Part shown: positions 5,050 through 45,170 of the stretch, one piece after another
How the letters are laid out: the number at the start of each line of letters is the position of its first letter
Numbering within the stretch: the first letter of the stretch is position 1
Origin: Flavobacteriales bacterium
GTDB taxonomy: Bacteria > Bacteroidota > Bacteroidia > Flavobacteriales_F > PHOS-HE28
Assembly: GCA_031411095.1 (NCBI GenBank)
Contig: JANOAK010000012.1
Coordinates: forward strand, 13,288 to 77,287
DNA: 64,000 nt
Reading direction: 5' to 3'
Made by a program: the position numbers and the translations under genes
The notes under the pieces: generated by a model
What the model was told of the DNA's origin: nothing
The model's database searches: none
Seen by the model: the letters and a program-made list of their open reading frames with translations, nothing else

Positions 5050-6924
5050 TCAGCGGAGGAGGTCGAAGGTCAGGGTATGTGTTCCACCCTCATCAACATA
5101 CCGAAGCAGGTAGGGAGCGTTGGGCAGCAGGGTGGGCAACGGGATGTCCATCACCTGGCTGGGTACAATGGCCGTCAGGGTATGGACCAGGCGCCCTTGC
5201 GTATCCATGATCTCCACACGCTTCAGGTCACGGATACCGGAAAGTCGCAGTACCCCGCTGGTCGGATTGGGATAAAGCGACACGAGCGTGTTCGTTGTGC
5301 TGGCCATGCCCGTGTTCAAGCACTGCGTCTCCGTCGCATCGACCACCGTGATCGACAGGCAGGCGGTGGCATCGGCACATGGCGGAGTTCCCTCTACGTT
5401 GTAGCAGTAAACCCCCGACGGATCATTACCTGGGTCGAAGGAATTGCTGTGCGGCGTGTTGTTCGGTGCGGTCCATGTGCCACCATTCTGTGGAGTGCCA
5501 AGGAGCGAATCGATCATCAGCACAGCGTCGCCGTTCGCGCAGACGTTGATCGCCTGGCCAATGCCGGCATCCGGTGCCTGTAAGATGTTCAGCGTGAGGA
5601 TGGAGGTGTCGGCCGGACAGTCCCCGACAGCGGGTACCACGTAGGAATAGACATTCGGTGAGATCAGCGTGAATGTGCCGTTATCATCCGCAGCGGGGTC
5701 AAGGAACCCGGCGAGGTTGGGCGGCGCATCGCCACAGTAGCTCGCGAACACATCCGCTCCTGCATATGGAGCGGCAGCCACCGTTACGGTATAGGTGATG
5801 ATCTGCGAGGCCGGTTGGGGGCAGGCATCATCCGTTGCAGTGATGGTGAACGCGTACGTACCGGGTAGCGCATTGGACGAGTTCCAGCAGATCAGCGCGG
5901 TGGCCGGGTTGGTGCCCGAAACACTGAGGTCCGCGCCGGAGAGCACATCCGCGACATTGCTTTCAAGGCTGAGCGATTGGGTCGCATCGGCATCCGTGAT
6001 CGCGGCATTGAAGCAGAACGATGCTCCGCCGCACACCACCACATCATGCGGGCCTGTCACCTGCGCCGGTCCGCTCACCACATCGATCTCACCGGAGCTT
6101 TCATCCGGATTGTTGTTGGCGCAGTTGATCACCACGAACACGATGTCGCGCATCACGGTGCCGGTGAGCTCACCGGCCGCGTTGTAGGCGTTGGCCTGCA
6201 CCACCACCACATAGTAACCCACGGCCGTGGGCGTGAATTGCACTTGTCCGGTGGAGGCATCCAGTGTGATGCCCGGGATGGGCGATGCACCGCTGTATCC
6301 GGGAGTATAGCTCACTGTTTGCGGTGAGCCACTGAAGTACCGTGCATTGATGAACGCATAGGCGAGCGAGTCCGACTCAGGGTCGCTCAGCCCGAAGTTG
6401 TAGCTCACAGGCTGGTTCACGCACACGTATGGCAGGGCATCCTCGGCGAACACAGGTGAATTGTCGCAGGGGGCCGTGGCGTTGTTGATGGTGGCTTCCA
6501 GGTACATGCCCGGCACGCCCACCACGTTCAGCGATCCTGCTCGGCAGCAGATGTTCCAGCTCACCGTCCAATGATCGCATTGCGGAAGCGTGACCTCGGT
6601 ATGGAACTCGTATAGCCGCATGCCGGGGAGGTTGCCTCCGTTACACGTACTGTTGCCCAGTTGGGCCGGGCAGAGCTGCGACACCTCCACCCCTGCAGAG
6701 GCGGGGATATCGGTTACTGTGAAACTGGTACCACAGGTGCTGGTGAAGTTCAACGTCTGTGGAACGATGGCGGCTCCGCTGCAATCAACGAACAGCTGGA
6801 GGGTGACGTCGTACGTGTTGTTCAGCTGGCAGGTCCAGGTGATATTCCCGCCGGAATAATGCCCTGCATACAGGTTACCGGCAAGGCACAGAGCAATAAG
6901 CAAGGAGTAGAGGTTCCGGACCAT
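5050..6924 (-). CDS. T9SS type A CTD protein with HxxGG/WxxCCR head domain and ~1.5 copies of the 79-aa stalk repeat
   Basis: Signal peptide ending LYA-GHYSGG. The head aligns by eye with 37758..45170. The C-terminus LYPNPTSG...IMDTQGR...YLLRY matches a type A CTD. Confidence 0.85.
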   Translation of the reverse strand: MVRNLYSLLIALCLAGNLYAGHYSGGNITWTCQLNNTYDVTLQLFVDCSGAAIVPQTLNFTSTCGTSFTVTDIPASAGVEVSQLCPAQLGNSTCNGGNLPGMRLYEFHTEVTLPQCDHWTVSWNICCRAGSLNVVGVPGMYLEATINNATAPCDNSPVFAEDALPYVCVNQPVSYNFGLSDPESDSLAYAFINARYFSGSPQTVSYTPGYSGASPIPGITLDASTGQVQFTPTAVGYYVVVVQANAYNAAGELTGTVMRDIVFVVINCANNNPDESSGEIDVVSGPAQVTGPHDVVVCGGASFCFNAAITDADATQSLSLESNVADVLSGADLSVSGTNPATALICWNSSNALPGTYAFTITATDDACPQPASQIITYTVTVAAAPYAGADVFASYCGDAPPNLAGFLDPAADDNGTFTLISPNVYSYVVPAVGDCPADTSILTLNILQAPDAGIGQAINVCANGDAVLMIDSLLGTPQNGGTWTAPNNTPHSNSFDPGNDPSGVYCYNVEGTPPCADATACLSITVVDATETQCLNTGMASTTNTLVSLYPNPTSGVLRLSGIRDLKRVEIMDTQGRLVHTLTAIVPSQVMDIPLPTLLPNAPYLLRYVDEGGTHTLTFDLLR

Positions 6925-7877: not shown

Positions 7878-7907
7878 GGTCGGTATGGAGGTGAACGCGG
7901 GAAGGGC

Positions 7908-7915
7908 CAAACATA
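7908..7915 (-). promoter_or_regulatory. Bacteroidota -7 promoter element TATGTTTG
   Basis: Exact TAnnTTTG match 30 nt upstream of the ATG at 7877. Confidence 0.6.
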
Positions 7916-7955
7916 GTGCCAGTAAAAAGCGACCTTCGACCGAGTTTTCGACAGC

Positions 7956-8315
7956 ATGCACGGAGAACTGTCCAAAAGCCAGGGCGAGGGACTGCGAAAG
8001 CGTCTGGATGAGGCCGTTGTGCTGCATGAGACCGTGCTGCAATTGCGCAAGGACCTGAACGAGGAGGAGATCCCCCTGCCGAAGACCGATGCGGAGGCCT
8101 TTGAGCGGCTTCGCGCCAGCGTGATGGCCCACATGGGTGCGTGGGAACGCGGCGAACCATCGCGGTTCTCCAGGGCCATCAACCGGGTGGACCTCACGGA
8201 GCGGCAGGTGAACGAGGCCATGGCACAGGGGGGACTGCCGGAGCTCGCCGGGCGCATGGTGCTCCGGTGCCTGCAGAAAGTGCTGATACGCAAGCGCTTC
8301 GCCGGGCTCGGATGA
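7956..8315 (+). CDS. Hypothetical helical protein (119 aa)
   Basis: Codon use is typical. The C-terminal RVDLTE...LAGRMVLRCLQKVLIR resembles a small conserved Bacteroidota family (from recall). Confidence 0.7.
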   Translation: MHGELSKSQGEGLRKRLDEAVVLHETVLQLRKDLNEEEIPLPKTDAEAFERLRASVMAHMGAWERGEPSRFSRAINRVDLTERQVNEAMAQGGLPELAGRMVLRCLQKVLIRKRFAGLG

Positions 8316-8383
8316 CCCCGGTTTTCCACATGCGCAAGGCAACAACCGGCCTCCGCGCGCGTATACCGGCCCACTCTGAGGGC

Positions 8384-8391: not shown

Positions 8392-8403
8392 GCCTCTGTT
8401 CCT

Positions 8404-16048: not shown

Positions 16049-19000
16049 ATGGCTTCAACCGTACGCGCCTTCCGCAACCTGGTCCTTCCGACCCGCTCCT
16101 TCGTCCGCAACCTGGCGATCGCCGCAATGGCCCTGTTGTTGGGCAGGCAGGACGCCCTGGCCACACACGCCATGGGCGGCGAACTCACCTACGCCTGTCT
16201 GGGTGGGAACCAGTACAAAGTGACCTTGAAGTTCTATCGCGACTGCAACGGTGTTGCCGCTCCGACGAACTGCAACAATGGTCTCTCGTTCAACGTGAGC
16301 TCACCGAACTGCGGAGCGAACTTCAACCAATGCTTCGTCCTGGAAAGTGTGCAGGTGATCACCCCGATCTGCCCTACGGAGATCGATCGCTGCTCCAGTA
16401 CCAATGGCGTTTACGGCGTGGAGGAATACACCTTTTCCAAGGTTGTGAACCTGAGCGCATATGCGGGATGCACGACGGGGAGTGATTGGGTGATCAGCTG
16501 GACGCTTTGCTGCAGGAACAACGCGATCACATCACTGCAGTCGCCGGGAACACAATCGCTGTATCTCAGCACACGGTTGAACACCACTGTAACGCCGTGC
16601 AACAACTCGCCCGTCTTCAACACGGACCCTACTCCCTATTACTGCCTTGGTCAATCGCTGAGCTATAACCCAGGCGCTTCCGACCCGGATGGTGATTCGC
16701 TCGCCTTCAGCATCATCCAGCCGCGCACCACCAACAACCAGCCCATTGCATTCGCGGCCGGTTATACGCTGTCACAGCCGATCCGCAACAATGGCGGTGC
16801 TGGCGCGGTCACGCTCGACCCGATCACCGGTACCCTCACTTGTACGCCGAGCATCCAGCAGGTGGCCGTCGTGACGTATCAGGTCTCCGAGTACCGGAAC
16901 GGTGTATTGATCGGCACCATCACCCGCGACGTCCAGTTCGTCGTGCGCCAATGCACCGGTAACACCTCGCCCACAGCAACGGGATTCAACGGGACCAATA
17001 ACTATGTCACCACAGTCTGTTCCGGAACACCCGTTACCCTCACCATCAATACGAGCGACCCGAACGCTGGCCAGAACACATCCATCGTATGGAACAACGG
17101 TATTCCCGGTGCCACCTTCACCACGAGCGGATCACCCTTCCAGACGGGCACATTCAGCTGGACGCCTACCGTGGCTGACATCGGCCAGAACCTTTTCGGT
17201 ATTTCGGTCTCTGACAATTCGTGTCCACTGGTCGGCAACAACCAGTACGGATACACGGTCATCGTCACGCCGCCGTTAACGCCCGCGAACGCGGGTCCGG
17301 ACCTTCAGGCTTGCGGACAAGTGGCATTGCAAGGCGTACAGCCTTACGTACAAACGCCGGGGCTGTGGTCCGTGGTGAGCGGCAGTGGCACTTTCGCGAA
17401 CGCGAGCAATCCCACCACACTAGTGACAGGTCTCGCACCGGGCAACAACGTTTTCGCCTGGAGCCTGGATTATTCGCCTTGCGGCACCACCACCGACCAA
17501 ATGACGGTGGTGAACTTCAATGCGGCCCAACCTGCGGCCGATGCGGGTCCGAACCAGCAACTCTGTACTCCCAGCACAACAGCGCAGTTGGCAGGTAACG
17601 TGGCCGTGGCCCCTGCCGTGGGAACATGGACATTGGTCAGCGGTACGGGGACGATCACCAATCCCAACTCACCCAACAGCACCGTAACGGGCCTGACCAT
17701 TGGTCAGAACATCTTCCGTTGGACCATTTCGAATGGGCCCTGCGGTTCGCCGACATCCGACCAGGTCACGCTCATGCTGTATGACTACGCTTTGCCTGCG
17801 GCCGGTGCCGGACCCGATCAGGTATTCTGCGCACCTGTGGCCAGCGTGACGATGAATGCACAACCATCCAGCGGTACGTGGACGGTGGTTACTGGTACGG
17901 GAGTATTTGCGAACCCGAACTTCCGGAACACCACCGTAACGGGAATGAGCATCGGGGTGAACACCTACTTGTGGACCGTTACCAACGGACCATGCACTCC
18001 ACCCTTCACGCAGGATGCCGTGAATGTTACCGTTTACGACCCCAACAGCCCCGCAGCGAACGCTGGTCCCGATCAGCAGCTCTGTACCAGCTCCACTTCT
18101 CTTGCAGGTAACGCGCCGATAGCCCCCGCCACAGGACAATGGGTCCTGGTAAGTGGTTCTGGCACGATCACCACGCCGACATCGCCCACCTCGGGTGTTA
18201 CCGGACTGGGATTCGGTCCGAACGTTTTCCGATGGACCTTGACCAACGGGCCCTGTGCGAATGGTCTTACAAGTGATCAGGTCACGATCACCCGCTTCAA
18301 CCCAGCTGCACCGGTGGCCAACGCGGGTCCGGACCAGAGCACCTGTAGCACTTCGCCGACCGTAACGATGTCGGCCAACACCCCGGTGGCACCGAGCACC
18401 GGAAGCTGGACGTTGGTCAGTGGTGCGGGAACGATCACCTCGCCGAACAGTCCCACCACCACCGTCACCGGACTTGGTATCGGTACGGTCGTCTTGCAAT
18501 GGTCCATCAACAATGGTCCCTGCGGTGCTCCGAGCGTGGATCAGGTGACCATCAGTGTATTTGATCAGAACGCTGTGACGGCCACCGCCGGTCCGGATCA
18601 ACAACTGTGCACCCCCGCCAATTCCACCTCGCTCGCTGGCAACACGCCGACGGCCCCAAGCACGGGAGCGTGGGGCTTGATCAGCGGTGCGGGCACCATC
18701 ACCACCCCGGGCTCACCTACGAGCGGCGTTACGGGTCTGGGCGTTGGTGTCAATGTGTTCCGTTGGACCATCAACAATGGTTCCTGTGCGAACCCGGTGA
18801 GCTTCGATGAGGTGTCCATTGTGGTGAACAACAACGGCCAGGCCGCAGCCAATGCGGGCGCTGACCAGAACTCCTGTTCCACCACGTCCAGCGCCACGCT
18901 TACGGCCAATGCAGCGGCCGCACCCGCCATCGGCACATGGAGCTTGGTGAGCGGATCAGGGACGATCGCCACACCCGGTAACGCCACCACAACGGTGAGC

Positions 19001-28454: not shown

Positions 28455-29405
28455 ATGAAACCGACCGCCAAGCGATGGAAAGGGATACTGCTCGGGCTTC
28501 TGCTCAGTGGCAGTGCGTTCGCGCAGCAGGATCCGCAGTTCTCGCAATACATGTTCAACCTGCTGGCCATCAATCCGGCTTATGCTGGCAGCGCGGAACG
28601 TGTAAGCCTGAAGGCCTTGAGCCGCCACCAGTGGGTGGGCTTCGAAGGTGCTCCTACAACGCAGACGCTCACAGCGCACAGCCCGTTCCTGATGGAAAGC
28701 CTCGGGTTGGGAGGGACCATCATGCGCGATGAGCATGGACCTGTTGTGCAGTACGGGTTCATGGTGGATGTGGCCTATCGCATGTTCCTGACACGGAACA
28801 CCAAGCTGTCGTTCGGCATCAAGGGTGGCATGAACCTGTTCCAGGGGAAGTTCGCTGACCTGAACCCCCTCCAGCAGGGTGATCAGGTGTTCCAGCAGAA
28901 CGTGCAGCAGAAGCTGGATCCACAATTCGGATTCGGTGTCATGTGGTATGGCGACCGTCACTATCTGGGTCTGAGCACACCGAAAATGTTGCGCACCAAG
29001 CTGTTCGAGGATCCAGCGCTCACCGATTCCATCATCGGCACGGTATGGCAGGCGGGGCAGCGGGCACACTGGTTCCTCACCGGCGGCTATGTCTTCAACA
29101 TGGGCATGTACAACAAGTTCAAGCCCAGCTTCCTGCTGAAAGCGGTGAACGGCGCTCCGATCAGCTTCGACCTCACCGCCAACTTCCTGTTCTATGAGAA
29201 GTTCTGGTTGGGGGCCATGTACCGTCATACTGACGCGGTGGGCCTCCTGGCGCAATACCACATCAGCAACGACCTGTCCGTCGGCTACGCCTACGATTAC
29301 CCGATCTCCAAGCTGAACAACTATACCGGCGGGTCGCATGAGTTCATGCTGGGCTTCGAGTTCGGCAACAAGTTGAAAGGCATTCGTTCACCGCGCTACT
29401 TCTGA
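28455..29405 (+). CDS. PorP/SprF family T9SS outer membrane beta-barrel
   Basis: QQDPQFSQYMFNLLAINPAYAG, RHQWVGFEGAPTTQ, WLGAMYR, GYAYDY, GSHEFMLG, C-terminal SPRYF. Confidence 0.95.
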   Translation: MKPTAKRWKGILLGLLLSGSAFAQQDPQFSQYMFNLLAINPAYAGSAERVSLKALSRHQWVGFEGAPTTQTLTAHSPFLMESLGLGGTIMRDEHGPVVQYGFMVDVAYRMFLTRNTKLSFGIKGGMNLFQGKFADLNPLQQGDQVFQQNVQQKLDPQFGFGVMWYGDRHYLGLSTPKMLRTKLFEDPALTDSIIGTVWQAGQRAHWFLTGGYVFNMGMYNKFKPSFLLKAVNGAPISFDLTANFLFYEKFWLGAMYRHTDAVGLLAQYHISNDLSVGYAYDYPISKLNNYTGGSHEFMLGFEFGNKLKGIRSPRYF

Positions 29406-29409: not shown

Positions 29410-31677
29410 ATGCATCCGTCCATCATGAAGCGGTCCATCTTCCACCAACAGTCCCTCACCCCCCTGCCCACCATCGGGGACCGGGCATGGGTGCAGCATG
29501 TCTTGCGCAGCGTCGGGGTCTGTGGACTGCTGATACTGGCCGTGTTGCAGCCCCATGCTGCCCAGGCGCAAAAGTTGAAAGAGCGTCTAGCCGAAGAGGC
29601 CGCCGCGGATTTCGATTACCCCAGGATGGCGGCCATCTATGAGGACATCACCACGAGCAAGAAGGGCACTGCGGATGACTATCGCCGGCTGGCCTTCGCG
29701 TACAAGCGCATGGGACAGCTGCTGAAGGCGGAGGCGGCATACAAGCAGATGGCGAACATGGGCCCGTTGAGCCCGCCCGACATGTTGGACTATGCCGATG
29801 TGCTTCGGGCGAACGGTCACTATGCCGAAGCCCTGCTGGTGTATGAGGCATATGCCGGATCGCATCCGGACGATGTGCGGGTGAAGGGCTATCTGGCACA
29901 AGGTGACTTCTTCATGCGGCTCAAGCGGGACAGTACCCGAAATGAGGTACGAACGGTGCCGATCAACAGCCCCCAGGCCGACCTGGGCATGACCGTGATG
30001 GATGACCTGCTGATCTTCAGCAGCGCGCGTGGCGAAGGCGTGGGCGGAAAGAACGAGTACAAATGGGACGACCAGCCCTTCCTGAACCTGTACACCGCCC
30101 TGCTCAAGGGGCGCACCGCCGCCGAGCCGATGGTCATGCGCAAGGACCTCAACAGCCGGTACCATGACGGTACGGCCTCGTATGATTCGCTGGCCCACCG
30201 GCTCTACTTCACCCGTGACAATGTGTTCTATGGCACCCTGCACAAGGCCAGCAACGGGGAACTGAAGTTGGGGATCTTCCATTCCGACATCACGGCCGGC
30301 GAGTTCAATCAACGCGAATGGGATGGCCTGGTGCCGTTCGAGCACAACGATCCGGAGTACAACGTTGGCCATCCAGCGATCAGCCCCGACGGCAAACGGC
30401 TGTTCTTCGCAAGCGATCGACCCGGAGGCCAGGGAGGGACCGATATCTGGTACAGCGATAACCTCGGAAATCGCTGGGGCGTACCGCAGAACATGGGAGC
30501 CAGGGTGAACACCCCGGGCAATGAGATGTTCCCGTACCTCAGCCAGGACAGCGTGCTCTATTTCACCAGCAACGCGCACCCCGGCCTGGGGGGCTATGAT
30601 ATCTTCCAATGCCGCCTAACGCCAAAAGGGCCGAGCTCCGTTATCAACATGGGTTATCCGGTCAACTCGCGATTCGATGAGCGGAACCTGATCATCCTGC
30701 AGGACGACAGTTCTGGCTTCTTCGTCAGCAACCGTCCAGGCGGCCAGGGCAGCGATGATATCTATGGCTGCACGGTGCATCCGCCCATGGAGCACATCGC
30801 GGGCCGTGTGGTCGATAGCCAGACAAGGGAAGGGCTTGATGGCGCGCTGCTCGATATCAAGGACGGTACAGGGCGCTACCTGGATGATGCGCGTATCAAT
30901 ATGATGGGTGATGGTCGGTTCGAGATCGACGCACCCTATCGTAACGCCTATGACGTGACCGCTACAAAGAGCGGGTACCTGCAGAACAGCGTTACGCTGA
31001 ACCCGGATACCGATGCGCTGGATGATGTGACCATCTCCTTGCAGAAGTACGAGTACGGGGCGGAAGGTGTCGTGATGCACGGCGAGACCCGCGCACCGCT
31101 CGCAGGCGCCAAAGTGATGTTGCTGGATGCGAGCGACAAGGTGGTGAATGAACTGGTCACCGGTGATGACGGGAAATATGCCTTCAGCCTTCAGCAGAAC
31201 ACCGACCATCGCCTGAAAGTGGAGAAGGAGGGCTTCTTCAAGCAGAGCGCTCGGATCAGCACGAAAGGCAAGACCGCCACGGTGATCCGTACGGACTTCA
31301 AGCTTTTCCCATTGGAAGTGGACCAGGTGGTACGCTTGGATAACATCTACTACGACCTGGCCAAGTGGAACATCCGCCCGGATGCAGCGCTGGAACTGGA
31401 TAAGCTGGTACAGACGCTCATTGATAACCCCACCGTGAAGATCGAGCTGAGCGCCCATACGGATTGCCGGGGTAAGGACTCGTACAACATGGACCTAAGT
31501 GCCAAGCGTGCGAAAAGCGCGGTGGATTATCTGATCAAACAGGGCATTGCCAAGGAGCGCCTTGTGAGCAAGGGCTACGGCGAGACGAAACCCATGGAGA
31601 CCTGCGAATGCAAGAAGTGCAACGATGAGGAACACCAGCGCAACCGCAGAACGGAATTCAAGGTGCTGAGCAAGTAG
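29410..31677 (+). CDS. PorE-like OmpA family protein (TPR, PD40 propeller, carboxypeptidase-regulatory-like, OmpA-C)
   Basis: TPR helices, HPAISPDGKRLFFASDRPGGQGGTDIW, NIYYDLAKWNI, IELSAHTDCRG..YNMDLSAKRA, NRRTEF. Start is 29410 or 29425. Confidence 0.92.
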   Translation: MHPSIMKRSIFHQQSLTPLPTIGDRAWVQHVLRSVGVCGLLILAVLQPHAAQAQKLKERLAEEAAADFDYPRMAAIYEDITTSKKGTADDYRRLAFAYKRMGQLLKAEAAYKQMANMGPLSPPDMLDYADVLRANGHYAEALLVYEAYAGSHPDDVRVKGYLAQGDFFMRLKRDSTRNEVRTVPINSPQADLGMTVMDDLLIFSSARGEGVGGKNEYKWDDQPFLNLYTALLKGRTAAEPMVMRKDLNSRYHDGTASYDSLAHRLYFTRDNVFYGTLHKASNGELKLGIFHSDITAGEFNQREWDGLVPFEHNDPEYNVGHPAISPDGKRLFFASDRPGGQGGTDIWYSDNLGNRWGVPQNMGARVNTPGNEMFPYLSQDSVLYFTSNAHPGLGGYDIFQCRLTPKGPSSVINMGYPVNSRFDERNLIILQDDSSGFFVSNRPGGQGSDDIYGCTVHPPMEHIAGRVVDSQTREGLDGALLDIKDGTGRYLDDARINMMGDGRFEIDAPYRNAYDVTATKSGYLQNSVTLNPDTDALDDVTISLQKYEYGAEGVVMHGETRAPLAGAKVMLLDASDKVVNELVTGDDGKYAFSLQQNTDHRLKVEKEGFFKQSARISTKGKTATVIRTDFKLFPLEVDQVVRLDNIYYDLAKWNIRPDAALELDKLVQTLIDNPTVKIELSAHTDCRGKDSYNMDLSAKRAKSAVDYLIKQGIAKERLVSKGYGETKPMETCECKKCNDEEHQRNRRTEFKVLSK

Positions 31678-37757: not shown

Positions 37758-40700
37758 ATGACCCGGCATGCCGTGTTGATCTGTGGCGTGAGCTTCCTGT
37801 TCACGACCGCACGGGCCGCGCACTATGCAGGTGGGAGTATCACCTATGAATGCATTGGACCCGACCAGTTCCTTATCAATCTGGACCTCTTCCTTGATTG
37901 CGCGGGTGTGCCAAGTGTTGCCCAAACGCTGACGTTCTCCAGCACGTGTGGCACCACGTTCACGGTGCCGAGCATCCCGCCACCGGTGCCTACGGAGGTG
38001 AGCCAGCTCTGCGCGGCCGCCATGTCCAACAGTACATGCAACGGGGGTACGTTGCCGGGTATCGAGTATTACCACTTTGAAACGATCGTCACCCTGCCGC
38101 CCTGTGACCACTGGACGGTGAGCTGGAACATCTGCTGTCGGGCCGCAACGGTGGATCTCGTCGGTGTGCCAGGGATGTACATCGAGGCGGAGATCTACAA
38201 CGCCACCGATGCGTGCAACAATTCCCCGGAGTTCACCGACCAATCGATCCCCTACGTCTGCCTCAACCAACCGGTGTACTACAATTTCGGGGTGAACGAA
38301 CCGGATGGGGATGAATTCACCTATGCGCTCATCAACGCCCGGTACTTCGCGGGCACACCACAGGACGTGAACTACCAGCCGGGTTTCTCCGGTGGAGCGC
38401 CGGTCCCCGGTATCACCCTCGATCCGGTGTCAGGGCAGATCGTATTCACCCCAACGGTCAGCGGGAACTATGTGGTGGCGGTGGAGGTGGAGGAGTACGA
38501 CGTCAACGGCAACTTGATCGGGACCGTTATGCGGGATATCATGTTCGTGGTGCTGCCCTGCACGGGAAGCGTGCCCATCAGCCAGGGTGCGGTGAATAAT
38601 ACAGGCGGGCTGATCACCGGGACCAACAGCATCGAAGTGTGCGAGGGTGAAGCGTTCTGTGTGGACATGGAGTTCACCGATGCGGATCCCGGAACCGTGC
38701 TACAGGTGGTATCCACGGCCACGGCCATGCTTCCCGGTTCCACGTTCACGGTGATCGGGACCAACCCGGCCATCGGACGCATCTGCTGGACAGGCGACCT
38801 GAACTACTCCCCCATCAATGTGCTGGTGCAGGCGGACGATGGCTCATGTCCGGTGGAGAACACGGCCACTGTGGCGTTGAACATCACCACGGTCAGCGGC
38901 GGAGGGCCGTTGCCGTCCCCTGGGACCAATGGGTCCGTTCAGGTCTGTCCCAATTCCCTGGCCTTCATGCTTATCGATGAGCTGGGCGGAACACCCGATC
39001 CCAGTGGGTTCTGGACAGGCCCTTCAGGATCCCCTCATAATGCACAGTTCGATCCCATTACCGATCCGGCAGGGGTCTACACCTACACCGTGGGCAACTC
39101 CTGCGCGAGCGCCACCTCCACCGTTGCGGTGAGCTACGTGAACGTGCCCAACCCGGGAACCGATGGGGCGCTGAGCCTTTGTTCCAATGTCGTTCCGGTG
39201 AACCTGCTCACCGGCCTTGGGGGAACACCTTCTGCCGGGGGCACGTGGACCGCGCCGGGCGGTGGTGCGTTCGGGGGCAGTTACGATCCGGCCGTTCATG
39301 GCCCAGGCATTTACATGTATTCGGTCCCGGCGCTCTCGGGTTGTCCGGGATCGAGCGCAACGGTGACCGTAACGGAGACCCCCGCCCCGAATGCGGGCAT
39401 CAACGGGCTGATGAGCGTGTGCTCCGATCAGGGGGTCACATCCATGTTCGGGTACCTCGGAGGCACCCCGGCAGTGGGTGGAACATGGACCGCCCCGGGA
39501 GGTGGTGCGTTCAGCGGAAGCTTCAACCCGGCTGTGCATGCGGCCGGTGTTTATACCTACAGCGTGACCGGCACGCCCCCGTGCGTCAACGCACAGGCCA
39601 CGGTAACCGTTACCATTAATCCAGTACCGAACGCTGGCGCGAACGGCTCGCGCACCGTGTGCTCATCCGCCGCGCCGGCCAACCTGTTCACCAGCCTGGG
39701 CGGCACTCCCCAAGCGGGTGGGTCATGGACCGACCCCGTGGGCATGCCCCACAGCAACATGTACGACCCGGCTGTCGATGGTCCGGGTGTGTATGTGTAC
39801 ACCGTGACCGGCGTTGCACCTTGCGCGAATGCTGCCGCTACGGTGACGGTCACGGAGACACCCGCACCTAACGCAGGGGCGGATGCGATCTTCTCCATTT
39901 GCAGCAACGGGCCGGTCACGAACCTGTATACTCTGTTGGGCGGTGGTGCCCAGGCCGGTGGCACATGGACCAATCCGGGCGGCGCCGCGTTCAGCGGATC
40001 CTACGACCCCACATTACATGGCCCCGGCATCTATACCTACACCCTCGCTCCCAGCGCTCCCTGTCCGGGAGATCAGGCCACGGTGACAGTAACGGAGCCT
40101 ATGGCGCCCAACGCAGGGGTGGATGCGGTCTATTCCATCTGTTCATCCAATGCGGCCACCAACCTGCTCTCCTTGCTCACTGGCGCGCAGGCCGGGGGTA
40201 CGTGGACCGCACCGGGCGGGGGCGCCTTCTTCGGTACGTATGACCCTGCCGTGCACGGCAGCGGCGTATTCACCTATACGGTGAACGGCGCTGCACCCTG
40301 TGTTGCCGATCAGGCCACGGTGACGGTCACGGAGAACGCTGCTCCGAACGCCGGCACCGATGGTGCCCTCGCGCTCTGTTCAACTTCGTCCGCCACAGGG
40401 CTTCTGGCCTCGCTGGTAGGTGCGCAGGCCGGCGGCATGTGGAGCGCTCCGGGTGGAGGGGCCTTCAGCGGTACGTACGATCCCGCCGTGCACATGAGCG
40501 GCGTTTACACATACACGGTGCCGGGCATTTCACCCTGCGCATCCGATCAGGCCACGGTCACGGTGACGGAGAACGCAGCACCGAACGCGGGAACGGATGG
40601 CACGCTTGCGCTATGTTCCAGCTCCGCGGCCACGGGGCTCTTTGCTTCGCTCACGGGTGCCCAGGCGGGTGGCACGTGGACCGCTCCAGGTGGAGGTGCC

Positions 40701-43700
40701 TTCACGGGCACCTATGATCCTGCGGTGGACGCGAGCGGCGTGTACACGTACATGGTATCGGGTACAGCACCCTGCGCAGCGGACCAGGCCACAGTGACCG
40801 TGACGGAGAACGCGGCACCGAACGCCGGCACGGATGGCAGCCTTACACTGTGTTCCACCTCTGCGGCCACGGGGCTCATCACTTCGCTCACGGGCGCCCA
40901 AGCGGGAGGCACGTGGACGGCACCAGGCGGAGGCGCATTCGCTGGCACGTATGATCCGGCCGTGCACGATGCCGGTGTCTACACATACACCGTGGCCGGG
41001 GCGGCACCCTGCGCATCCGATCAGGCCACGGTCACGGTGACGGAGAACGCGGCACCGAACGCGGGAACGGATGGCACCCTTACGCTGTGTTCCACCTCCG
41101 CGGCCACGGGGCTCATCACTTCGCTCGCGGGCGCCCAGGTGGGAGGCACGTGGACGGCCCCAGCCGGAGGCGCATTCGCTGGCACGTATGATCCTGCCGT
41201 GCACGATGCCGGTGTCTACACGTACACCGTGGCCGGGGCGGCCCCGTGCGCATCCGATCAGGCCACGGTCACGGTGACGGAGAACGCGGCACCGAACGCG
41301 GGAACGGATGGCACCATCACGCTATGTTCAACCTCTGCGGCCACAGGGCTCTTTGCTTCGCTCACGGGTGCACAGGCGGGTGGCTCGTGGACGGCTCCAG
41401 GTGGAGGGCCCTTCACGGGCACCTATGATCCGGCGGTGGACGCGGGCGGCGTGTACACATACGTGGTATCGGGTACAGCGCCATGCGCAGCGGACCAGGC
41501 CACAGTGACCGTGACGGAGAACGCGGCACCGAACGCGGGCACGGATGGCAACCTTACGCTGTGCTCCACCTCTGCGGCCACAGGTCTCTTTGCTTCGCTC
41601 ACGGGCGCACAGGCGGGTGGGACCTGGACGGCGCCCGGTGGAGGCGCCTTCAACGGCACCTATGATCCATCGGTGAACAGTGGTGGGGTGTATACCTACA
41701 CGCTCAATGCCACTGCCCCGTGTGTGAGCGACCAGTCCACGGTAACGGTGACCGAGAACACAGCACCCAACGCCGGCGCTGACGGGTCCATCACGATCTG
41801 TGAACTGAGTGCTCCCACGCCCCTCTTTCCTTCGCTCATGGGCGCCGATGCCGGTGGTTCGTGGAACGCACCCGGAGGCGGTGCATTCAGTGGCACCTAC
41901 GATCCGGTGGTGAACACGAGCGGGGTATACACCTACTCCGTATCAGGTACGGCTCCCTGCGTTGCGGACCAGGCAACGGTCACGGTCACTGAAACGAGCG
42001 ACCCGGACGCGGGCACCGACGGATCCATCACACTTTGTTCAACTTCCGCAGCCACCGACCTTTTCGCTTCGCTCAGCGGTGCGGATGGTGGTGGAACGTG
42101 GACCGCTCCTGGTGGAGGTGCGTTCAGCGGCACATACGACCCGTCCGTGAACAGCGGTGGCGTTTATACCTACACGCTCAATGCCACGGCCCCCTGTGTG
42201 AGCGACCAGTCGACGGTAACAGTGACGGAGAACGCGGCGCCGAACGCCGGTGTGGACGGGTCCATTACGATCTGCGACCTCAGCGCACCTACAGGGCTCT
42301 TCGCTTCGCTCTCGGGCGCACAAGCTGGTGGGACCTGGACGGCTCCCGGTGGCGGCGCTTTCTCCGGGACCTATGATCCGGCCGTGAATGTGACCGGCGT
42401 GTACACATACTCGGTAGCAGGTACACCGCCGTGCGCGGTGGACCAGGCCATGGTGACGGTCACGGAAACGACCAGCCCGTACGCGGGCATCGACGGGGCG
42501 ATCACGCTCTGTTCCACTTCCGGGGCGATCGCGCTGTTCGCTTCGCTCACAGGCGCCCAGGCCGGTGGCACCTGGACGGCTCCCGGTGGAGGGGCGTTCA
42601 GCGGCACCTACGATCCGGCAGTGAATAGCAGTGGCATCTATACCTATACCCTGAATGCAACTGCACCGTGTGTAAGCGATCAGGGTACGGTGACAGTGAC
42701 GGAGCTTGCAGCGCCGTTCGCCGGATCGGATGCATCCGTCACGCTCTGCGACCTGGGAGCGCCCACGGCACTGTTCGCTTCACTTACGGGCGCGGATGGC
42801 GGTGGGACGTGGACCGCGCCGGGTGGCGGGGCGTTCAGTGGCACCTACGATCCGGCCGTGAACACGAGCGGTGTGTACGCGTACTCAGTAGTAGGTACAC
42901 CGCCGTGCATAGCGGACCAGGCGACGGTGACGGTCACGGAAACGAGCAGCCCGAACGCGGGCACGGACGGGGCGATCACGCTGTGTTCGAATGCCGCACC
43001 CACATCCCTGTTCGCGCAGCTGGGCGGGGGTGCCCAGGCAGGTGGTACATGGACATCCCCAGCGGGAACTTCGCACACGGGCACGTTGGATCCAGCCGTG
43101 GACGCGTCCGGATCCTACCAATACACCCTTGATGCCGCCCTCCCGTGTGTGGCGTCCACCGCCGCGGTGATGGTGACCATTGAACCAGTCCCCGATGCAG
43201 GAACGAATGGCAGCGTTGAGCTGTGCACGGGTGATGGACCTGCGGATCTGTTCACGTTCTTGGGTGGTTCACCCGATGCGGGCGGTACATGGACCGCAGC
43301 GGGCGGGGGCGCGTTCAGCGGTACGTTCGATCCCGCGCTCGATGCTCCAGGGACCTACACTTACAGCATCGGCACTGCAGTGTGTTCCACCGTGCAGAGC
43401 AGTGTTCAGGTCACTGTTCTGGTCGGCCCGGATGCAGGGCAGGGTACTGACTTGGCGCTCTGCAACAGCAATGCATCGGTGACTTTGTTCAACTACCTGC
43501 TCGGCACCCCTGACCCTGGTGGCACCTGGTCCGCTCCCGGAGGGGGGGCGTTCGCCGGAACCTTGGACCCAGCCATTGATCCTGCCGGCGCGTATACGTA
43601 CACAGTTGCGGGCAATGCGACCTGTCCCAACGCTGTTGCCATCCTTAACGTGAGCATCAATGCCGCGGTCTCCGCCGGGGTGCCCGGTGCGGTGATCCTG

Positions 43701-45170
43701 TGCACCACCAACACTCCGCAAGCGTTGATCGCCAGCCTGGGAGGATCACCTCAGCCCGGTGGAACGTGGAGTGCGCCGGATGGATCGCCGTTCAGTGGAA
43801 CCATCGATCCCGCGACCGATGCACCGGGTCTTTACACCTACCTGGTGCAAGGGCCTGATCCCTGCCCCGATGCCTCGGCCACCGTGAATGTGCAATTGAA
43901 CCAGGCTGCGGATGCCGGCGAGGACGGGTCTGGATCGGTCTGCAGCGACCATGCCCCCATCAGCTTGATCACGCTATTGGGCGGTACACCGCAGGTCGAT
44001 GGCACATGGACAGGACCGGATGAATTGCCTGCTTCGGGCACCTTCACCCCAGGTGTTTCGTTGGTGGGAGGATATACCTATGAAGTAATTGGACAAGGGC
44101 CTTGCGCGTCAGATATGGCCACGGTCACCATGTCCGTATCCCCAGCTGCCGATGCCGGTGATGATGGTGCCATCACGCTCTGCGCAGATGCGGACGCCTT
44201 CGACCTCTTGCCCCTGCTGGAGGGCAACCCTGATCCCGGCGGCACCTGGACCTACCCCGATGGTTCACCATGCAATGGATCGGTCGATCCGGCCACGGAT
44301 ATGTCCGGGGCATACACGTACACGGTGGTCGCGCCCGCACCTTGCCTGGCCGACCAGGCGGTGGTGATGGTCACGATCCATCCGACACCACTGCCGGAGA
44401 TCCTTGTGCAGACCGACGGGGGCTGTTCGCCGGTGACCGCCATGTTCACCAATGGGTACGATGGACCGGGAACGTGTTACTGGACGTTCGGCAACGACAG
44501 CACCTCCGGGGATTGCATACCACCACCTGTTGTGTACGACCAGACCGGTTCGTACACCGTAACGCTCACCATGGATGCGGGCAACGGCTGCACGGCCATG
44601 GTGACGCTCTCCGAGCCGATCGAGGTGGTCGAACGACCTGAAGCGATGTTCCTGGTTACACCGGAGAACCTGAACACCGGGGCACCGCAGGCGATCTTCC
44701 AGAATGGCAGCACGGGGGCGGTGAGCTATTCGTGGCAATTCGACGAGCTTGGAGAGAGTGAGGAAGCGCAACCCACGTTCACCTTCCCGTCCGAAGTGGA
44801 AGGGCTGTACACCGTGTGCCTGACGGCTTATGCGAACGAAGCGTGCTTCGACACGGCGTGCGCCGATGTCCTCGTGCCTGCGGGAGCCGGCGTGTTCGTG
44901 CCCAATGCGTTCAGCCCCGACGGCGATGGCGTCAATGACACCTTCATGCCCATCGTATCGGGCATAACATCTGATATGTATGAATTCCTGGTGTTCGATC
45001 GCTATGGGCAGCAATTGTTCCGCACCTCGATGATCGGTGAGCCGTGGACCGGCCAATTCGGCGACGGAACGCTCACCCCGGTGGGCGTATACATCTGGAA
45101 GGTCACCGGACATGATAGGTACAACGGCCAGCGTGTGGACAGGACCGGTCATGTGACCTTGGTCCGCTGA
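37758..45170 (+). CDS. Large T9SS type B CTD adhesin, ~2470 aa (head, 23 x 79-aa repeats, 2 PKD-like domains, CTD)
   Basis: Signal peptide ending ARA-AHYAGG, WNICCR head, PKD-like YWTFGND and YSWQFDE, and VFVPNAFSPDGDGVNDTF..FDRYG..GVYIWKV..GHVTLVR. Confidence 0.92.
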   Translation: MTRHAVLICGVSFLFTTARAAHYAGGSITYECIGPDQFLINLDLFLDCAGVPSVAQTLTFSSTCGTTFTVPSIPPPVPTEVSQLCAAAMSNSTCNGGTLPGIEYYHFETIVTLPPCDHWTVSWNICCRAATVDLVGVPGMYIEAEIYNATDACNNSPEFTDQSIPYVCLNQPVYYNFGVNEPDGDEFTYALINARYFAGTPQDVNYQPGFSGGAPVPGITLDPVSGQIVFTPTVSGNYVVAVEVEEYDVNGNLIGTVMRDIMFVVLPCTGSVPISQGAVNNTGGLITGTNSIEVCEGEAFCVDMEFTDADPGTVLQVVSTATAMLPGSTFTVIGTNPAIGRICWTGDLNYSPINVLVQADDGSCPVENTATVALNITTVSGGGPLPSPGTNGSVQVCPNSLAFMLIDELGGTPDPSGFWTGPSGSPHNAQFDPITDPAGVYTYTVGNSCASATSTVAVSYVNVPNPGTDGALSLCSNVVPVNLLTGLGGTPSAGGTWTAPGGGAFGGSYDPAVHGPGIYMYSVPALSGCPGSSATVTVTETPAPNAGINGLMSVCSDQGVTSMFGYLGGTPAVGGTWTAPGGGAFSGSFNPAVHAAGVYTYSVTGTPPCVNAQATVTVTINPVPNAGANGSRTVCSSAAPANLFTSLGGTPQAGGSWTDPVGMPHSNMYDPAVDGPGVYVYTVTGVAPCANAAATVTVTETPAPNAGADAIFSICSNGPVTNLYTLLGGGAQAGGTWTNPGGAAFSGSYDPTLHGPGIYTYTLAPSAPCPGDQATVTVTEPMAPNAGVDAVYSICSSNAATNLLSLLTGAQAGGTWTAPGGGAFFGTYDPAVHGSGVFTYTVNGAAPCVADQATVTVTENAAPNAGTDGALALCSTSSATGLLASLVGAQAGGMWSAPGGGAFSGTYDPAVHMSGVYTYTVPGISPCASDQATVTVTENAAPNAGTDGTLALCSSSAATGLFASLTGAQAGGTWTAPGGGAFTGTYDPAVDASGVYTYMVSGTAPCAADQATVTVTENAAPNAGTDGSLTLCSTSAATGLITSLTGAQAGGTWTAPGGGAFAGTYDPAVHDAGVYTYTVAGAAPCASDQATVTVTENAAPNAGTDGTLTLCSTSAATGLITSLAGAQVGGTWTAPAGGAFAGTYDPAVHDAGVYTYTVAGAAPCASDQATVTVTENAAPNAGTDGTITLCSTSAATGLFASLTGAQAGGSWTAPGGGPFTGTYDPAVDAGGVYTYVVSGTAPCAADQATVTVTENAAPNAGTDGNLTLCSTSAATGLFASLTGAQAGGTWTAPGGGAFNGTYDPSVNSGGVYTYTLNATAPCVSDQSTVTVTENTAPNAGADGSITICELSAPTPLFPSLMGADAGGSWNAPGGGAFSGTYDPVVNTSGVYTYSVSGTAPCVADQATVTVTETSDPDAGTDGSITLCSTSAATDLFASLSGADGGGTWTAPGGGAFSGTYDPSVNSGGVYTYTLNATAPCVSDQSTVTVTENAAPNAGVDGSITICDLSAPTGLFASLSGAQAGGTWTAPGGGAFSGTYDPAVNVTGVYTYSVAGTPPCAVDQAMVTVTETTSPYAGIDGAITLCSTSGAIALFASLTGAQAGGTWTAPGGGAFSGTYDPAVNSSGIYTYTLNATAPCVSDQGTVTVTELAAPFAGSDASVTLCDLGAPTALFASLTGADGGGTWTAPGGGAFSGTYDPAVNTSGVYAYSVVGTPPCIADQATVTVTETSSPNAGTDGAITLCSNAAPTSLFAQLGGGAQAGGTWTSPAGTSHTGTLDPAVDASGSYQYTLDAALPCVASTAAVMVTIEPVPDAGTNGSVELCTGDGPADLFTFLGGSPDAGGTWTAAGGGAFSGTFDPALDAPGTYTYSIGTAVCSTVQSSVQVTVLVGPDAGQGTDLALCNSNASVTLFNYLLGTPDPGGTWSAPGGGAFAGTLDPAIDPAGAYTYTVAGNATCPNAVAILNVSINAAVSAGVPGAVILCTTNTPQALIASLGGSPQPGGTWSAPDGSPFSGTIDPATDAPGLYTYLVQGPDPCPDASATVNVQLNQAADAGEDGSGSVCSDHAPISLITLLGGTPQVDGTWTGPDELPASGTFTPGVSLVGGYTYEVIGQGPCASDMATVTMSVSPAADAGDDGAITLCADADAFDLLPLLEGNPDPGGTWTYPDGSPCNGSVDPATDMSGAYTYTVVAPAPCLADQAVVMVTIHPTPLPEILVQTDGGCSPVTAMFTNGYDGPGTCYWTFGNDSTSGDCIPPPVVYDQTGSYTVTLTMDAGNGCTAMVTLSEPIEVVERPEAMFLVTPENLNTGAPQAIFQNGSTGAVSYSWQFDELGESEEAQPTFTFPSEVEGLYTVCLTAYANEACFDTACADVLVPAGAGVFVPNAFSPDGDGVNDTFMPIVSGITSDMYEFLVFDRYGQQLFRTSMIGEPWTGQFGDGTLTPVGVYIWKVTGHDRYNGQRVDRTGHVTLVR
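38918..44388 (+). repeat. Coding tandem array of 23 repeats of 237-240 nt
   Basis: Consensus NAGTDGxLxLCS..LFxSLxGAQAGGTWTAPGGGAFSGTYDPAV..GVYTYTV.G..PC..DQATVTVTE. The period is exactly 237 nt from 40584 to 42954. Confidence 0.9.

Follow-up and report, generated by a model that had tools for sequence, protein, structure and literature searches.

Three T9SS cargo genes with homologous N-terminal tips, unlike stalks and two CTD classes in a Flavobacteriales genome

Gene layout and the shared tip

Three T9SS cargo genes, referred to as S, M and L, lie in the window (the whole 64-kb stretch of DNA that was analyzed), and the ORF calls and translations returned the same coordinates for all three as the sequence-only reading had given. 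Their features are listed below.

5050..6924, minus strand: gene S, 624 aa; putative Sec signal peptide, head domains D1-D2, Ig-like D3, about 1.5 repM units, linker and type A CTD
5062..5277, minus strand: type A CTD of S, residues 550-621
5347..5799, minus strand: stalk remnant of S, residues 376-526, a partial 79-aa repM unit and then a complete one
5800..6114, minus strand: Ig-like D3 of S (He_PIG; PF05345 at 24.7 bits, cut-off 24, residues 339-382)
6115..6864, minus strand: head of S, D1-D2, residues 21-270 (alignments, AF2, Foldseek)
16049..28411, plus strand: gene L, 4120 aa from ATG; putative signal peptide, head, D3, 41 K319L-like PKD repeats and type B CTD
16163..16960, plus strand: head of L, D1-D2, residues 39-304 (head HMM E 5.6e-120)
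17285..28126, plus strand: stalk of L, residues 413-4026, 41 units of ~88 aa
28136..28408, plus strand: type B CTD of L, residues 4030-4120
37758..45170, plus strand: gene M, 2470 aa; putative signal peptide, head, D3, 23 repM units, two PKD domains and an orphan type B CTD
37818..38567, plus strand: head of M, D1-D2, residues 21-270
38910..44375, plus strand: stalk of M, residues 385-2206, 23 units with a period of 79-80
44433..44831, plus strand: two PKD domains of M between stalk and CTD, residues 2226-2358
44892..45167, plus strand: type B CTD of M, residues 2379-2470

The countable details of the sequence-only reading, namely the heads, the repeat counts and the CTD classes, were all borne out by HMM searches and alignment. 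Up to residue 548 of M, S and M align colinearly (blastp); beyond that point S changes to a type A CTD. By inspection, the N-terminus of S (MVRNLYSLLIALCLAGNLYA followed by GH) has a basic n-region, a hydrophobic core and Ala at -1. The start codon of L agrees with that of its orthologue P0001, which begins at the same Met; an internal start at residue 19, which would parallel the S start MVRNL, was ruled out, the codon being GTC.

Over ~250 aa, the heads of S and M are 58.8% identical with no indels, and identities of 37.6% and 39.5% were obtained for S-L and M-L, respectively. The blastp E-values of 1e-126 (S against M) and 3e-43 (S against L) extend the homology well past the generic Cys motifs. 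No further head copies were detected by the head HMM within the 64-kb window. The 250-aa head folds as a pair of beta-sandwich domains, of which D1 is rich in Cys and D2 is cadherin-like and carries a DPDGD motif; what the earlier description named the second domain is in fact the third, the Ig-like D3.

The structure prediction and fold search that had been proposed for the heads were carried out on the S tip. The AF2 model, built on an MSA of 117 sequences, is all-beta with three beta-sandwich domains (pLDDT 95.4, pTM 0.86), and a single-sequence AlphaFold model (pLDDT 37) was set aside in its favor. The top Foldseek matches of the three-domain model were cadherin-23 EC1-2, protocadherins and Ig arrays (E ~1e-7), which are generic tandem Ig/cadherin arrays matched with low TM scores. 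D2 and D3 are similar beta-sandwiches to the cadherin, He_PIG and dystroglycan-type cadherin-like domains, with the DPDGD-type motif in D2, and with a He_PIG score barely over the cut-off and a weak cadherin-23 match of the profile in the PDB sequence search for D3. D1 differs from these domains in being Cys-rich with a predicted N-terminal X-His; no Pfam or NCBIfam family covering D1 was found, and the PDB sequence search gave no match with either D1 or D2.

One His is kept in 217 of the 220 heads (99%), and Ala stands at -2 from it in 197 of the 213 heads scored, so that the mature protein would start X-His; 10-11 near-invariant Cys together with invariant Arg and Asp residues were also observed. 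Conservation is highest in the tip, with dN/dS values down to 0.03 (0.03-0.06 for the M head against its nearest orthologues), which counts against a fast-evolving ligand-binding tip. Since the three heads are just 38-59% identical, a common ligand specificity cannot be assumed, and the proposal that the three genes present one binding head was not supported.

Stalk repeats and stalk length

Repeat units were counted by iterated HMMs, which confirmed about 1.5 copies in S and 23 copies in M of one 79-aa repeat (repM), and 41 copies of an 88-aa repeat in L. The partial unit of S (residues 376-446, model positions 23-76) scored 42.8 bits and the full unit (450-526) 98.7 bits, while the M units scored 87-116 bits each and the L units 84-123 bits each, the latter matching Pfam K319L-like_PKD (PF22352) with an E-value of 1e-130. 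The M and L repeats had been called unrelated; they do belong to distinct families, but they have a motif skeleton in common and their profiles cross-match weakly (hhalign E 4e-4, probability 34%), so the term is slightly too strong. Of the two PKD domains behind the M stalk, the one at 2226-2280 matches PF18911 at 29.8 bits, and that at 2316-2358 matches PF00801 at 18 bits, under the cut-off.

Substantial differences in the identity of the units were observed between the two long stalks. The L units are on average 46% identical, with a maximum of 67% for any pair and 37-65% for adjacent units, and no DNA-level repeat was found in the L stalk by TRF. In the M stalk, TRF detected a DNA repeat spanning 40175-42988, with periods of 237 nt and 474 nt and 75% matches; identity to the best-matching partner is 77-95% for the core units 7-17 and 45-59% for the flanking units, with adjacent units reaching 80-95% for units 7-12 only, and 36-71% elsewhere. 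Stalk length would change by unequal recombination inside the arrays; it would be labile in M, and of greater age and stability in L. As read from the assemblies, in which arrays may have collapsed in short-read MAGs, perhaps including the window, the syntenic M orthologues hold 15, 15, 16, 20, 23, 28, 30, 31, 32, 33, at least 37 and at least 41 units, with 30 in the nearest relative compared to 23 in the window, and the L-type proteins of other MAGs hold 21, 31, 41 and at least 37 units.

Taking ~4 nm per domain, S with 5 domains would reach ~20 nm, M with 28 domains ~100-125 nm, and L with 44 domains ~150-200 nm. The sequence-only reading saw in this series a ruler-like system. As a molecular ruler or periscope model, this means that a functionally identical head is presented at three selected distances, close to the cell or set free from it, at middle range and at long range, and that stalk length is the selected variable. 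We regard this as unlikely. The stalks do differ about tenfold in their domains, two contigs from related MAGs (CAWFCK010000016 and JADKGB010000001) each show the short, M-type and L-type genes again in that order, the L-type length is similar in the nearest relative judging by contig coordinates, with 41 units also in P0138, and the units of the M core share 80-95% identity, a level like that of Periscope Proteins (PMC8201768). However, the length of the M stalk varies among syntenic orthologues from 15 to at least 41 units, including the nearest relative, and overlaps the L-type range of 21-41, which speaks against this model. The divergence of the heads likewise speaks against a ruler, as do the continuum of lengths across the family for both CTD types, the L units, which at ≤67% identity fall under the 80% Periscope criterion (PMC8201768), and a 90%-identity M-type cluster with four MAGs at 3023 aa and one at 3028 aa, in which no strain-level difference in length is seen.

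The likeness to known fibrillar proteins is a more general one. A tandem-domain stalk combined with a surface anchoring signal, which fibrillar adhesins have besides an adhesive domain, was found in M and L in the form of 23 and 41 Ig/PKD-like units followed by a T9SS CTD. SasG, Rib, Sgo_0707 and CdrA, among the Periscope Proteins and fibrillar adhesins, resemble S, M and L in their N-terminal module, tandem-domain rod and C-terminal anchor, and a further likeness is that the repeat number differs between related genomes, for the M-type at the level of species orthologues. In contrast to these proteins, the different lengths here belong mainly to separate paralogs with their own secretion or anchoring signals, not to alleles of one gene, and anchoring would be by T9SS, and not by sortase or T1SS. 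S, M and L show the architecture of putative T9SS-secreted fibrillar surface proteins in having a homologous N-terminal tip, unlike stalk lengths and two CTD classes.

CTD classes, neighboring genes and predicted destinations

The assignment of a type A CTD to S and type B CTDs to M and L was upheld by Pfam and NCBIfam, with marginal scores for S in Pfam and for M in NCBIfam. The S CTD matched TIGR04183 over residues 550-618 at 25.8 bits (cut-off 23) and PF18962 at 23.8 bits (under its cut-off of 27), and scored 79.5 bits with the local type A HMM. The M CTD matched PF13585 at 44.4 bits (cut-off 27) and TIGR04131 at 33.9 bits, ~1 bit under the cut-off of 35, and the L CTD matched PF13585 at 97.7 bits and TIGR04131 at 60.1 bits. 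In public records, close relatives bear the names 'T9SS type A sorting domain-containing protein', given by NCBI, or 'gliding motility-associated C-terminal domain-containing protein'. The claim that type A and type B CTDs route cargo differently agrees with the literature, in which the destination after secretion is set by CTD type and swapped CTDs reroute cargo in experiments (PMC12618676). The place to which the CTD would send each protein is the better-supported functional difference among S, M and L. The CTD end is probably handled at the outer membrane, and the N-terminal tip would therefore be the distal end. With its type A CTD, S would take the route of PorV and a PorU-type attachment complex, and be either covalently anchored near the surface or released.

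Two genes directly downstream of L bear on its predicted destination:

28455..29405, plus strand: PorP/SprF-family outer-membrane protein (PF11751 at 265 bits, full length), 44 nt downstream of L and its predicted cognate shuttle or anchor
29410..31677, plus strand: PorE-like protein of 755 aa with TPR (TPR_14), PD40 beta-propeller, CarboxypepD_reg and OmpA C-terminal domains (Pfam)

The L locus thus contains a type B cargo gene, a PorP/SprF-like gene and a PorE-like gene with TPR, beta-propeller, CRD and OmpA_C domains, the last of these matching the four-domain PorE architecture described in PMC9143113. This operon layout has been tied to static anchoring (PMC12618676) and to the PorE-PorP-PG1035 complex (PMC9143113), and the prediction for L is accordingly a static attachment to the cell through a PorE-PorP-cargo complex linked to peptidoglycan. 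A PorP homologue also follows the L-type gene in locus L060, and in loci L057 and L058 it lies downstream of the L-type gene on the same strand, past interrupted ORFs. The same combination of type B cargo, PorP/SprF-like and PorE-like protein is seen in Fjoh_3952/Fjoh_3951/Fjoh_3950 of F. johnsoniae and PG1035/PorP/PorE of Porphyromonas gingivalis; five operons of this kind exist in F. johnsoniae, where Fjoh_3952 gives static foci (PMC12618676). In comparison with Fjoh_3952 and PG1035, the L passenger is unrelated in detail, having 4120 aa, an unnamed tip and 41 K319L-like PKD units.

The sequence-only reading held that a type B CTD needs a PorP/SprF partner, the gene of which is often, though not always, found beside that of the cargo. 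In L the predicted cognate gene indeed lies directly downstream, but M has none adjoining, neither in the window, where the L-linked gene is the one PorP homologue, nor in any of the seven orthologous loci with a visible 3′ end. M is thus an orphan type B cargo, a point that reading did not contain. The context of M is kept in ~25 related loci, with a TonB receptor upstream, plus DUF5689 in most, and wherever the 3′ side is visible, a GT2 glycosyltransferase gene lies downstream, as it does in the window, plus an amidohydrolase in most. With a divergent type B CTD and no linked shuttle, M must depend on an unlinked PorP/SprF-like protein; as the CTD regions of M and L are 27.6% identical, crosstalk of M with the L-linked shuttle is doubtful. 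[quoted passage not shown] By analogy with these orphan substrates of a single species, M may be loaded on the gliding track. SprB, the gliding-motility adhesin on the surface of F. johnsoniae, which binds its PorP-like partner SprF (PMC9143113), is like L and M in its very large size, its repeats and its type B CTD. It differs from L, whose operon has a PorE-like gene that dynamic substrates lack, and in the tip module; at E≤0.01 none of the three proteins gave a match to SprB repeats (PF13573), and no sprC/sprD-like neighbors, as in an sprCDBF-type operon, were found at the three genes.

Family-wide distribution and age of the paralogs

Far from being peculiar to this locus, the head is an unnamed N-terminal module present in thousands of Bacteroidota protein clusters. 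A total of 10,255 representatives of 50%-identity clusters were obtained at E≤1e-3, 7,291 at ≤1e-10 and 1,978 at ≤1e-30. The head starts at approximately residue 20-45 in nearly all matches listed, and it was found ahead of varied stalks, such as PKD, Reelin subrepeat B, SprB repeat, Ig_7 and CarboxypepD_reg, with some proteins harboring two heads in tandem. Family members range from ~480 to >4,100 aa with either CTD type; of the 143 representatives that were new among the best 150, 73 have a type B CTD (481-4119 aa) and 32 a type A CTD (478-2727 aa). Proteins of <470 aa in the first head-profile list were mostly contig-end fragments or frameshifted calls, and lengths were taken from the exhaustive representative search instead. 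The Pfam CTD family agreed in all eight of the typed members sampled, one of them under the Pfam cut-off.

A head tree of family members (Kimura-corrected NJ) gave at least 22 CTD-type switches among 138 typed leaves by Fitch parsimony; deep nodes reached a bootstrap of 2-41% (100 replicates, 89-sequence subset), so the number and direction of the switches are approximate. CTD type would have been exchanged many times in the head family. The S orthologues (556-679 aa, type A CTD) form one clade with 96% bootstrap, and the clade bearing repM sits inside type B outgroups, as would be expected if the short form arose through loss of stalk units and replacement of the CTD. The earlier proposal of assembly by stalk deletion and CTD swapping is consistent with the tree, but a recent local event is contradicted: S-, M- and L-type genes are each syntenic over several MAGs, with identities over the head and third domain (residues 20-385) of 85-91% for S and M in the nearest MAGs and of 64-76% for L, and dN/dS values against the nearer orthologues of S, M and L range from 0.03 to 0.16. 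The paralogs are thus old and stably inherited. Synteny of S on both the sucA and the epimerase side holds in loci L001, L002, L033 and L034, with a dN/dS of 0.084 against L002, and a decaying truncated pseudogene was ruled out for S by this conservation, synteny and purifying selection.

We consider it probable that S, M and L are old paralogs of an unnamed T9SS cargo family, likely fibrillar adhesin-like surface proteins, whose best-supported difference lies in the destinations set by their CTDs. All three would be built from a Sec signal peptide, a rigid all-beta tip of the domains D1 to D3, a stalk of Ig/PKD-like domains in tandem and a T9SS sorting domain at the C-terminus. Judged by these predicted domains, they are T9SS fibrillar adhesin-like proteins of an ordinary kind whose tip domain is undescribed, and the locus is a tidy local instance of a pattern widespread in Bacteroidota. 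A bolder view, which is possible though rather doubtful, is that the shared tip is an undescribed phylum-wide T9SS tip module with a conserved role of its own (e.g., metal-dependent or glycan binding), and that its three copies are deliberately routed to three destinations. These would be the PorV route (released or covalently attached), a static fibril tethered through PorE, and an orphan shuttle with a possible lead onto the gliding track; the locus would then be a natural counterpart of laboratory CTD-swap experiments and a testable system for how CTD address and stalk length jointly position one class of binding module.

A rival reading is that the module is not a ligand-binding head. It lies directly after the signal peptide in nearly all matches listed, whatever the stalk type, it is under strong purifying selection, its His, the Ala at -2, its 10-11 Cys and the invariant Arg and Asp are retained, and it occurs in tandem in some proteins, all of which would suit a structural or processing module, such as a cap for the folding of the fibril, a site of self-association from tip to tip or from tip to surface, or a metal-dependent or enzymatic domain, with the specific functions carried by the variable stalks and internal domains. 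Against this stand the modeled tandem Ig/cadherin-like fold, which is typical of adhesion modules, the order of N-terminal non-repeat module, repeat stalk and C-terminal anchor, which is the standard layout of fibrillar adhesins (PMC8286594), and the failure of searches of Pfam, NCBIfam and PDB to match the tip to any catalytic family, and we judge a role other than ligand binding quite improbable.

Read as an old family of adhesin-like T9SS cargo, the three genes have a wider bearing. Much of the cell surface of Bacteroidota consists of T9SS cargo, and to our knowledge most giant 'gliding motility-associated C-terminal domain' proteins carry no annotated passenger function. The unnamed N-terminal module defines a very large family and is thereby a candidate new domain family at the level of Pfam; the module has repeatedly been moved between type A and type B signals and onto stalks of ~5 to >40 domains. 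A single lineage stably retains the short type A form, the orphan type B form and the PorP/PorE-linked type B form together, which makes the locus a natural test bed for the post-secretion address encoded by the CTD (PMC12618676), although it reveals no new secretion or anchoring principle.

That the copy numbers, above all the 23 units of M, are unreal, with arrays collapsed or expanded in metagenome assemblies, is very unlikely: the M core (up to 95% protein identity, ~75% DNA matches over 2.8 kb) is hard for short reads, long-read or consensus-style contigs ('tig...', 'contig_...') carry 30 to at least 41 units with frameshifts where several short-read-style MAGs carry 15-20, and many family matches are fragments ending within repeats, but the L and M ORFs of the window are intact and without frame switches across 12.4 and 7.4 kb, the L units are too diverged for collapse, four independent MAGs agree on the 3023-aa M-type, and the conclusions on head, CTD and synteny are independent of copy number.

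A mobile-element or horizontal-transfer origin was also considered and rejected, since all three genes lie between housekeeping neighbors (sucA/sucB, tyrS and polyprenyl synthase) whose order is conserved. The GC content around S, L and M runs without a sharp break.

Three cargo genes, their heads and their sorting domains

The GC content of the window is ~60%, with no sharp compositional break, and ORF calls bear out the three large genes named in the sequence-only reading, here termed short (S), medium (M) and long (L). Their features, together with those of the N-terminal domains (D1 to D3) and of the C-terminal sorting domains (CTDs), are listed below.

5050-6924 (-): S, ORF of 624 aa
37758-45170 (+): M, ORF of 2470 aa
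16049-28411 (+): L, ORF of 4120 aa counted from ATG, with the same start Met as its orthologue P0001
6859-6864 (-): conserved X-His of S (residues 21-22, head alignment)
37818-37823: conserved X-His of M
16163-16168: conserved X-His of L
S residues ~21-150: D1, Cys-rich (AlphaFold model)
S, to residue ~268: D2, cadherin-like, with a DPDGD-type motif (AlphaFold model)
S, D3: Ig-like, He_PIG score barely over the cut-off (model and Pfam)
S CTD: type A, TIGR04183 25.8 (cut-off 23), PF18962 23.8 (cut-off 27)
M CTD: type B, TIGR04131 33.9 (cut-off 35), PF13585 44.4 (cut-off 27)
L CTD: type B, TIGR04131 60.1, PF13585 97.7

The same reading had claimed a common head and a type A CTD for S against type B for M and L, and both claims hold, the former by blastp and the latter by the NCBIfam and Pfam scores. 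S matches M at E 1e-126, with S 1-540 colinear with M 1-548, and matches L at E 3e-43 over about the first 380 residues. Over the 250 residues after the signal peptide, head identity is 58.8% for S and M, indel-free, 37.6% for S and L and 39.5% for M and L, with 11 Cys and many further positions invariant across the three. No extra copy of the head was found in the 64-kb window with the head HMM.

The structure and fold check envisaged earlier was run on the S tip (head plus D3). AlphaFold with a 117-sequence family alignment of residues 21-385 gave an all-beta model of three sandwich domains (pLDDT 95.4, pTM 0.86); a single-sequence model was discarded (pLDDT 37). Foldseek matches in the PDB (E ~1e-7, TM scores low) are to cadherin-23 EC1-2, protocadherins, Dscam and titin Ig arrays, and the predicted fold is a generic tandem Ig/cadherin architecture. 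The sole match in a profile search of PDB sequences was a weak one to cadherin-23, on D3, and D1 belongs to no family in Pfam or NCBIfam.

Of 220 aligned heads, 217 have the His of S residue 22, which lies at median position 27 of the protein, and of 213 heads scored, 197 have Ala at -2 of it. This suggests a signal-peptidase cleavage after which the mature proteins probably start with X-His-x-x-Gly. Also invariant or near-invariant are 10-11 Cys, Arg128, Gly226 and Asp260; the X-His, the Cys, Arg128 and Asp260 hint at a defined metal or ligand site in D1.

Stalk repeats and stalk length

Iterated HMMs, each seeded from a single unit, exactly reproduced the repeat numbers of the sequence-only reading (~1.5, 23 and 41 in S, M and L). 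The S stalk carries one partial (376-446) and one full (450-526) unit of the 79-aa repeat (repM), the M stalk 23 repM units (residues 385-2206, period 79-80) with two Pfam PKD domains preceding the CTD, and the L stalk 41 units (residues 413-4026, period ~88) of K319L-like PKD (PF22352). No Pfam family was found for the 79-aa repeat. Profiles of the two repeats cross-match weakly (hhalign E 4e-4, probability 34%, 63 columns) on a common skeleton of NAGxD..C ... W ... PC, and they are distinct families, distantly related at most.

The mean identity of the M units is 55%; core units 7-17 share 77-95% with their best partners and flanking units 45-59%, and the core is visible at the DNA level as TRF periods of 237 and 474 nt (40175-42988, +). 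The core is young and partly of a two-unit (474-nt) higher order, with old diverged units on either side, a pattern expected of recent mid-array unequal recombination. The L units have a mean identity of 46% and a maximum of 67%, and TRF did not detect them at the DNA level. Assuming ~4 nm per Ig/PKD-like domain, the predicted spans of S, M and L would be roughly 20, 110 and 175 nm.

Counted in three forward frames from the head to the GT2 gene, syntenic M orthologues contain 15, 15, 16, 20, 23 (window), 28, 30 (nearest relative), 31, 32, 33, at least 37 and at least 41 repM units, counts in which the young core may be collapsed in short-read MAGs, and L-type proteins contain 21, 31, 41 and at least 37 units. 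Since the two ranges overlap (15 to at least 41 and 21-41), the "mid range" and "long range" assigned to M and L are not conserved classes. Members of the M-type P0125 cluster (≥90% identity) are 3023 aa long in four independent MAGs and 3028 aa in a fifth, suggesting that copy number is stable inside this species-level group, though widely different between groups; rapid strain-level length variation was not seen in these five MAGs. The proposal of a modular ruler, by which S, M and L would show one head at three distances, is still conjectural, and it is weakened by how far the heads have diverged and how labile the M stalk length is. Its closest published analogue is the Periscope Protein concept (PMC8201768); by the repeat identity used there, M qualifies in its core only and L does not.

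The head family and the age of the paralogs

The head profile was run exhaustively with HMMER against 1.84 billion cluster representatives. Matches number 10,255 at E≤1e-3, 7,291 at ≤1e-10 and 1,978 at ≤1e-30, and part of the weaker ones may stem from the cadherin-like D2 alone. The head begins at residue 20-45 in nearly all matches listed, and total lengths range from ~240 to 4,119 aa. CTDs were typed with local HMMs, for which the window CTDs, verified by Pfam, served as seeds; for eight of eight sampled typed members Pfam agreed with these HMMs on the CTD family, one of them under the Pfam cut-off. Of the best 150 representatives, 143 were newly returned, and among these 73 carry a type B CTD (481-4119 aa) and 32 a type A CTD (478-2727 aa), with none detected by these HMMs in 38. 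Stalks of sampled members are diverse, including PKD, Reelin subrepeat B, SprB repeat, Ig_7 and CarboxypepD_reg, and in two members, P0142 (884 aa) and P0166 (838 aa), two complete heads stand in tandem, those of P0142 at residues ~24-280 and 408-663. Fitch parsimony on an NJ tree of the 220 heads requires at least 22 changes of CTD type among 138 typed leaves, an approximate count because the deep nodes are weakly supported. Given these diverse stalks, both CTD types and repeated changes, the combination of one head with many stalks and either CTD is a trait of the entire family and is not specific to this locus.

Four "complete" short database proteins (P0001, P0026, P0053 and P0058) finish in out-of-frame garbage, and giant-gene orthologues on "tig..." or "contig_..." contigs at six related loci (L001, L007, L011, L014, L025 and L030) have 1-3 frame switches. 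Both have the look of errors in assembly or consensus, not of pseudogenes; such errors inflate the count of short family members in databases.

A motif-seeded scan, with one genome per GTDB species, gave 78 loci, all in MAGs, from Flavobacteriales, Saprospiraceae, Aureispira, Chitinophagales and other Bacteroidia. The nearest (CAWFCK010000016, uncultured Flavobacteriales MAG) has an S head 90% identical and the same S-to-M spacing as the window. In L001, L002, L033 and L034 the S-type gene is flanked by the sucA side and by an epimerase gene; M-type genes, at ~25 loci, lie between a divergent TonB receptor and GT2 (usually then amidohydrolase); and in L060, L057 and L058 a PorP homologue is found downstream of the L-type gene. 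A third MAG, JADKGB01, holds an S-type protein (MBK9758378.1) on a contig equal in length to that of its M-type and L-type loci. On head plus D3 (residues 20-385), compared with nearer orthologues, dN/dS was 0.084 (L002) and 0.158 (L033) for S, 0.03-0.06 (L006, L007) for M and 0.12-0.16 for L, rough values with synonymous sites near saturation, which indicate purifying selection on all three tips. S, M and L are old paralogs, stably inherited.

In a bootstrapped head tree, the S clade (556-679 aa, type A throughout) has 96% bootstrap, a second short type A clade (~560 aa) 93%, and M with its two nearest orthologues 100%. The short form had been attributed to stalk deletion and CTD swapping; the repM-bearing clade as a whole is nested among type B outgroups, which fits that proposal, with short type A forms arising from longer ancestors of type B. 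The event is old and probably occurred more than once. The novelty is modest overall, and comprises an undescribed, very widespread tip domain, marked by a fixed Cys framework and by a conserved X-His at its N-terminus, its documented repeated shuffling between two CTD classes, and a single lineage keeping three differently addressed copies side by side.

Gene neighbourhoods and predicted destinations

The neighbouring genes are as follows.

44 nt downstream of L: full-length PorP/SprF protein (PF11751, 265 bits)
next after this gene: PorE-like protein of 755 aa (TPR, PD40, CarboxypepD_reg and OmpA domains)
7008-8411 (-): conserved hypothetical protein with an apparent signal peptide, directly upstream of S on the same strand
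32274-33611 (-): CBM4_9 protein with a type A CTD, divergently upstream of M
33654-34904 (-): DUF5689 protein, divergently upstream of M
34919-37573 (-): TonB-dependent receptor, divergently upstream of M
54991-58341 (-): protein of 1116 aa (FG-GAP repeats, ASPIC/UnbV domain)
58615-60339 (-): DNA/RNA non-specific endonuclease family protein, 574 aa

The 755-aa protein has the same four-domain architecture as PorE (PMC9143113). Gorasia et al. (PMC9143113) showed that PorE, PorP and PG1035 form a complex and that SprF binds SprB, and proposed that type B cargo is anchored via its PorP-like partner. According to Paillat et al. 2025 (PMC12618676), type B CTDs are specific for cognate PorP/SprF-like shuttles, and five operons of F. 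johnsoniae combine a cargo with a shuttle and a PorE-like gene. Static foci are formed by Fjoh_3952, the cargo of one of them; three orphan substrates of type B reach the gliding track with one unlinked shuttle in common, and CTD swaps redirect cargo among helical movement, static anchoring and release. S, M and L all belong to the known class of T9SS fibrillar adhesin-like cargo, L fitting the PorE-linked type B operons and M the orphan type B substrates; unlike SprB, they contain no SprB repeats (Pfam). By analogy we infer that L would form a long, statically anchored fibril, and that S would take the PorV/type A route and be covalently anchored or released. M would depend on an unlinked shuttle, since the single PorP homologue of the 64-kb window adjoins L and the CTD regions of M and L are 27.6% identical.

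The 7008-8411 protein, which likely starts at the internal Met of MRSPLLLLSGFALLTAHAQ, has no Pfam match and occupies the same position beside the S orthologues in L001, L002, L033 and L034; it may be functionally linked to S. At the ~25 loci related to M, DUF5689 genes in most and CBM4_9 genes in more than 20 lie beyond the TonB receptor, and the trio (32274-37573, -) may be a small nutrient-capture unit. The products of 54991-58341 and 58615-60339, with no match to the local CTD HMMs, may be additional secreted or surface proteins.
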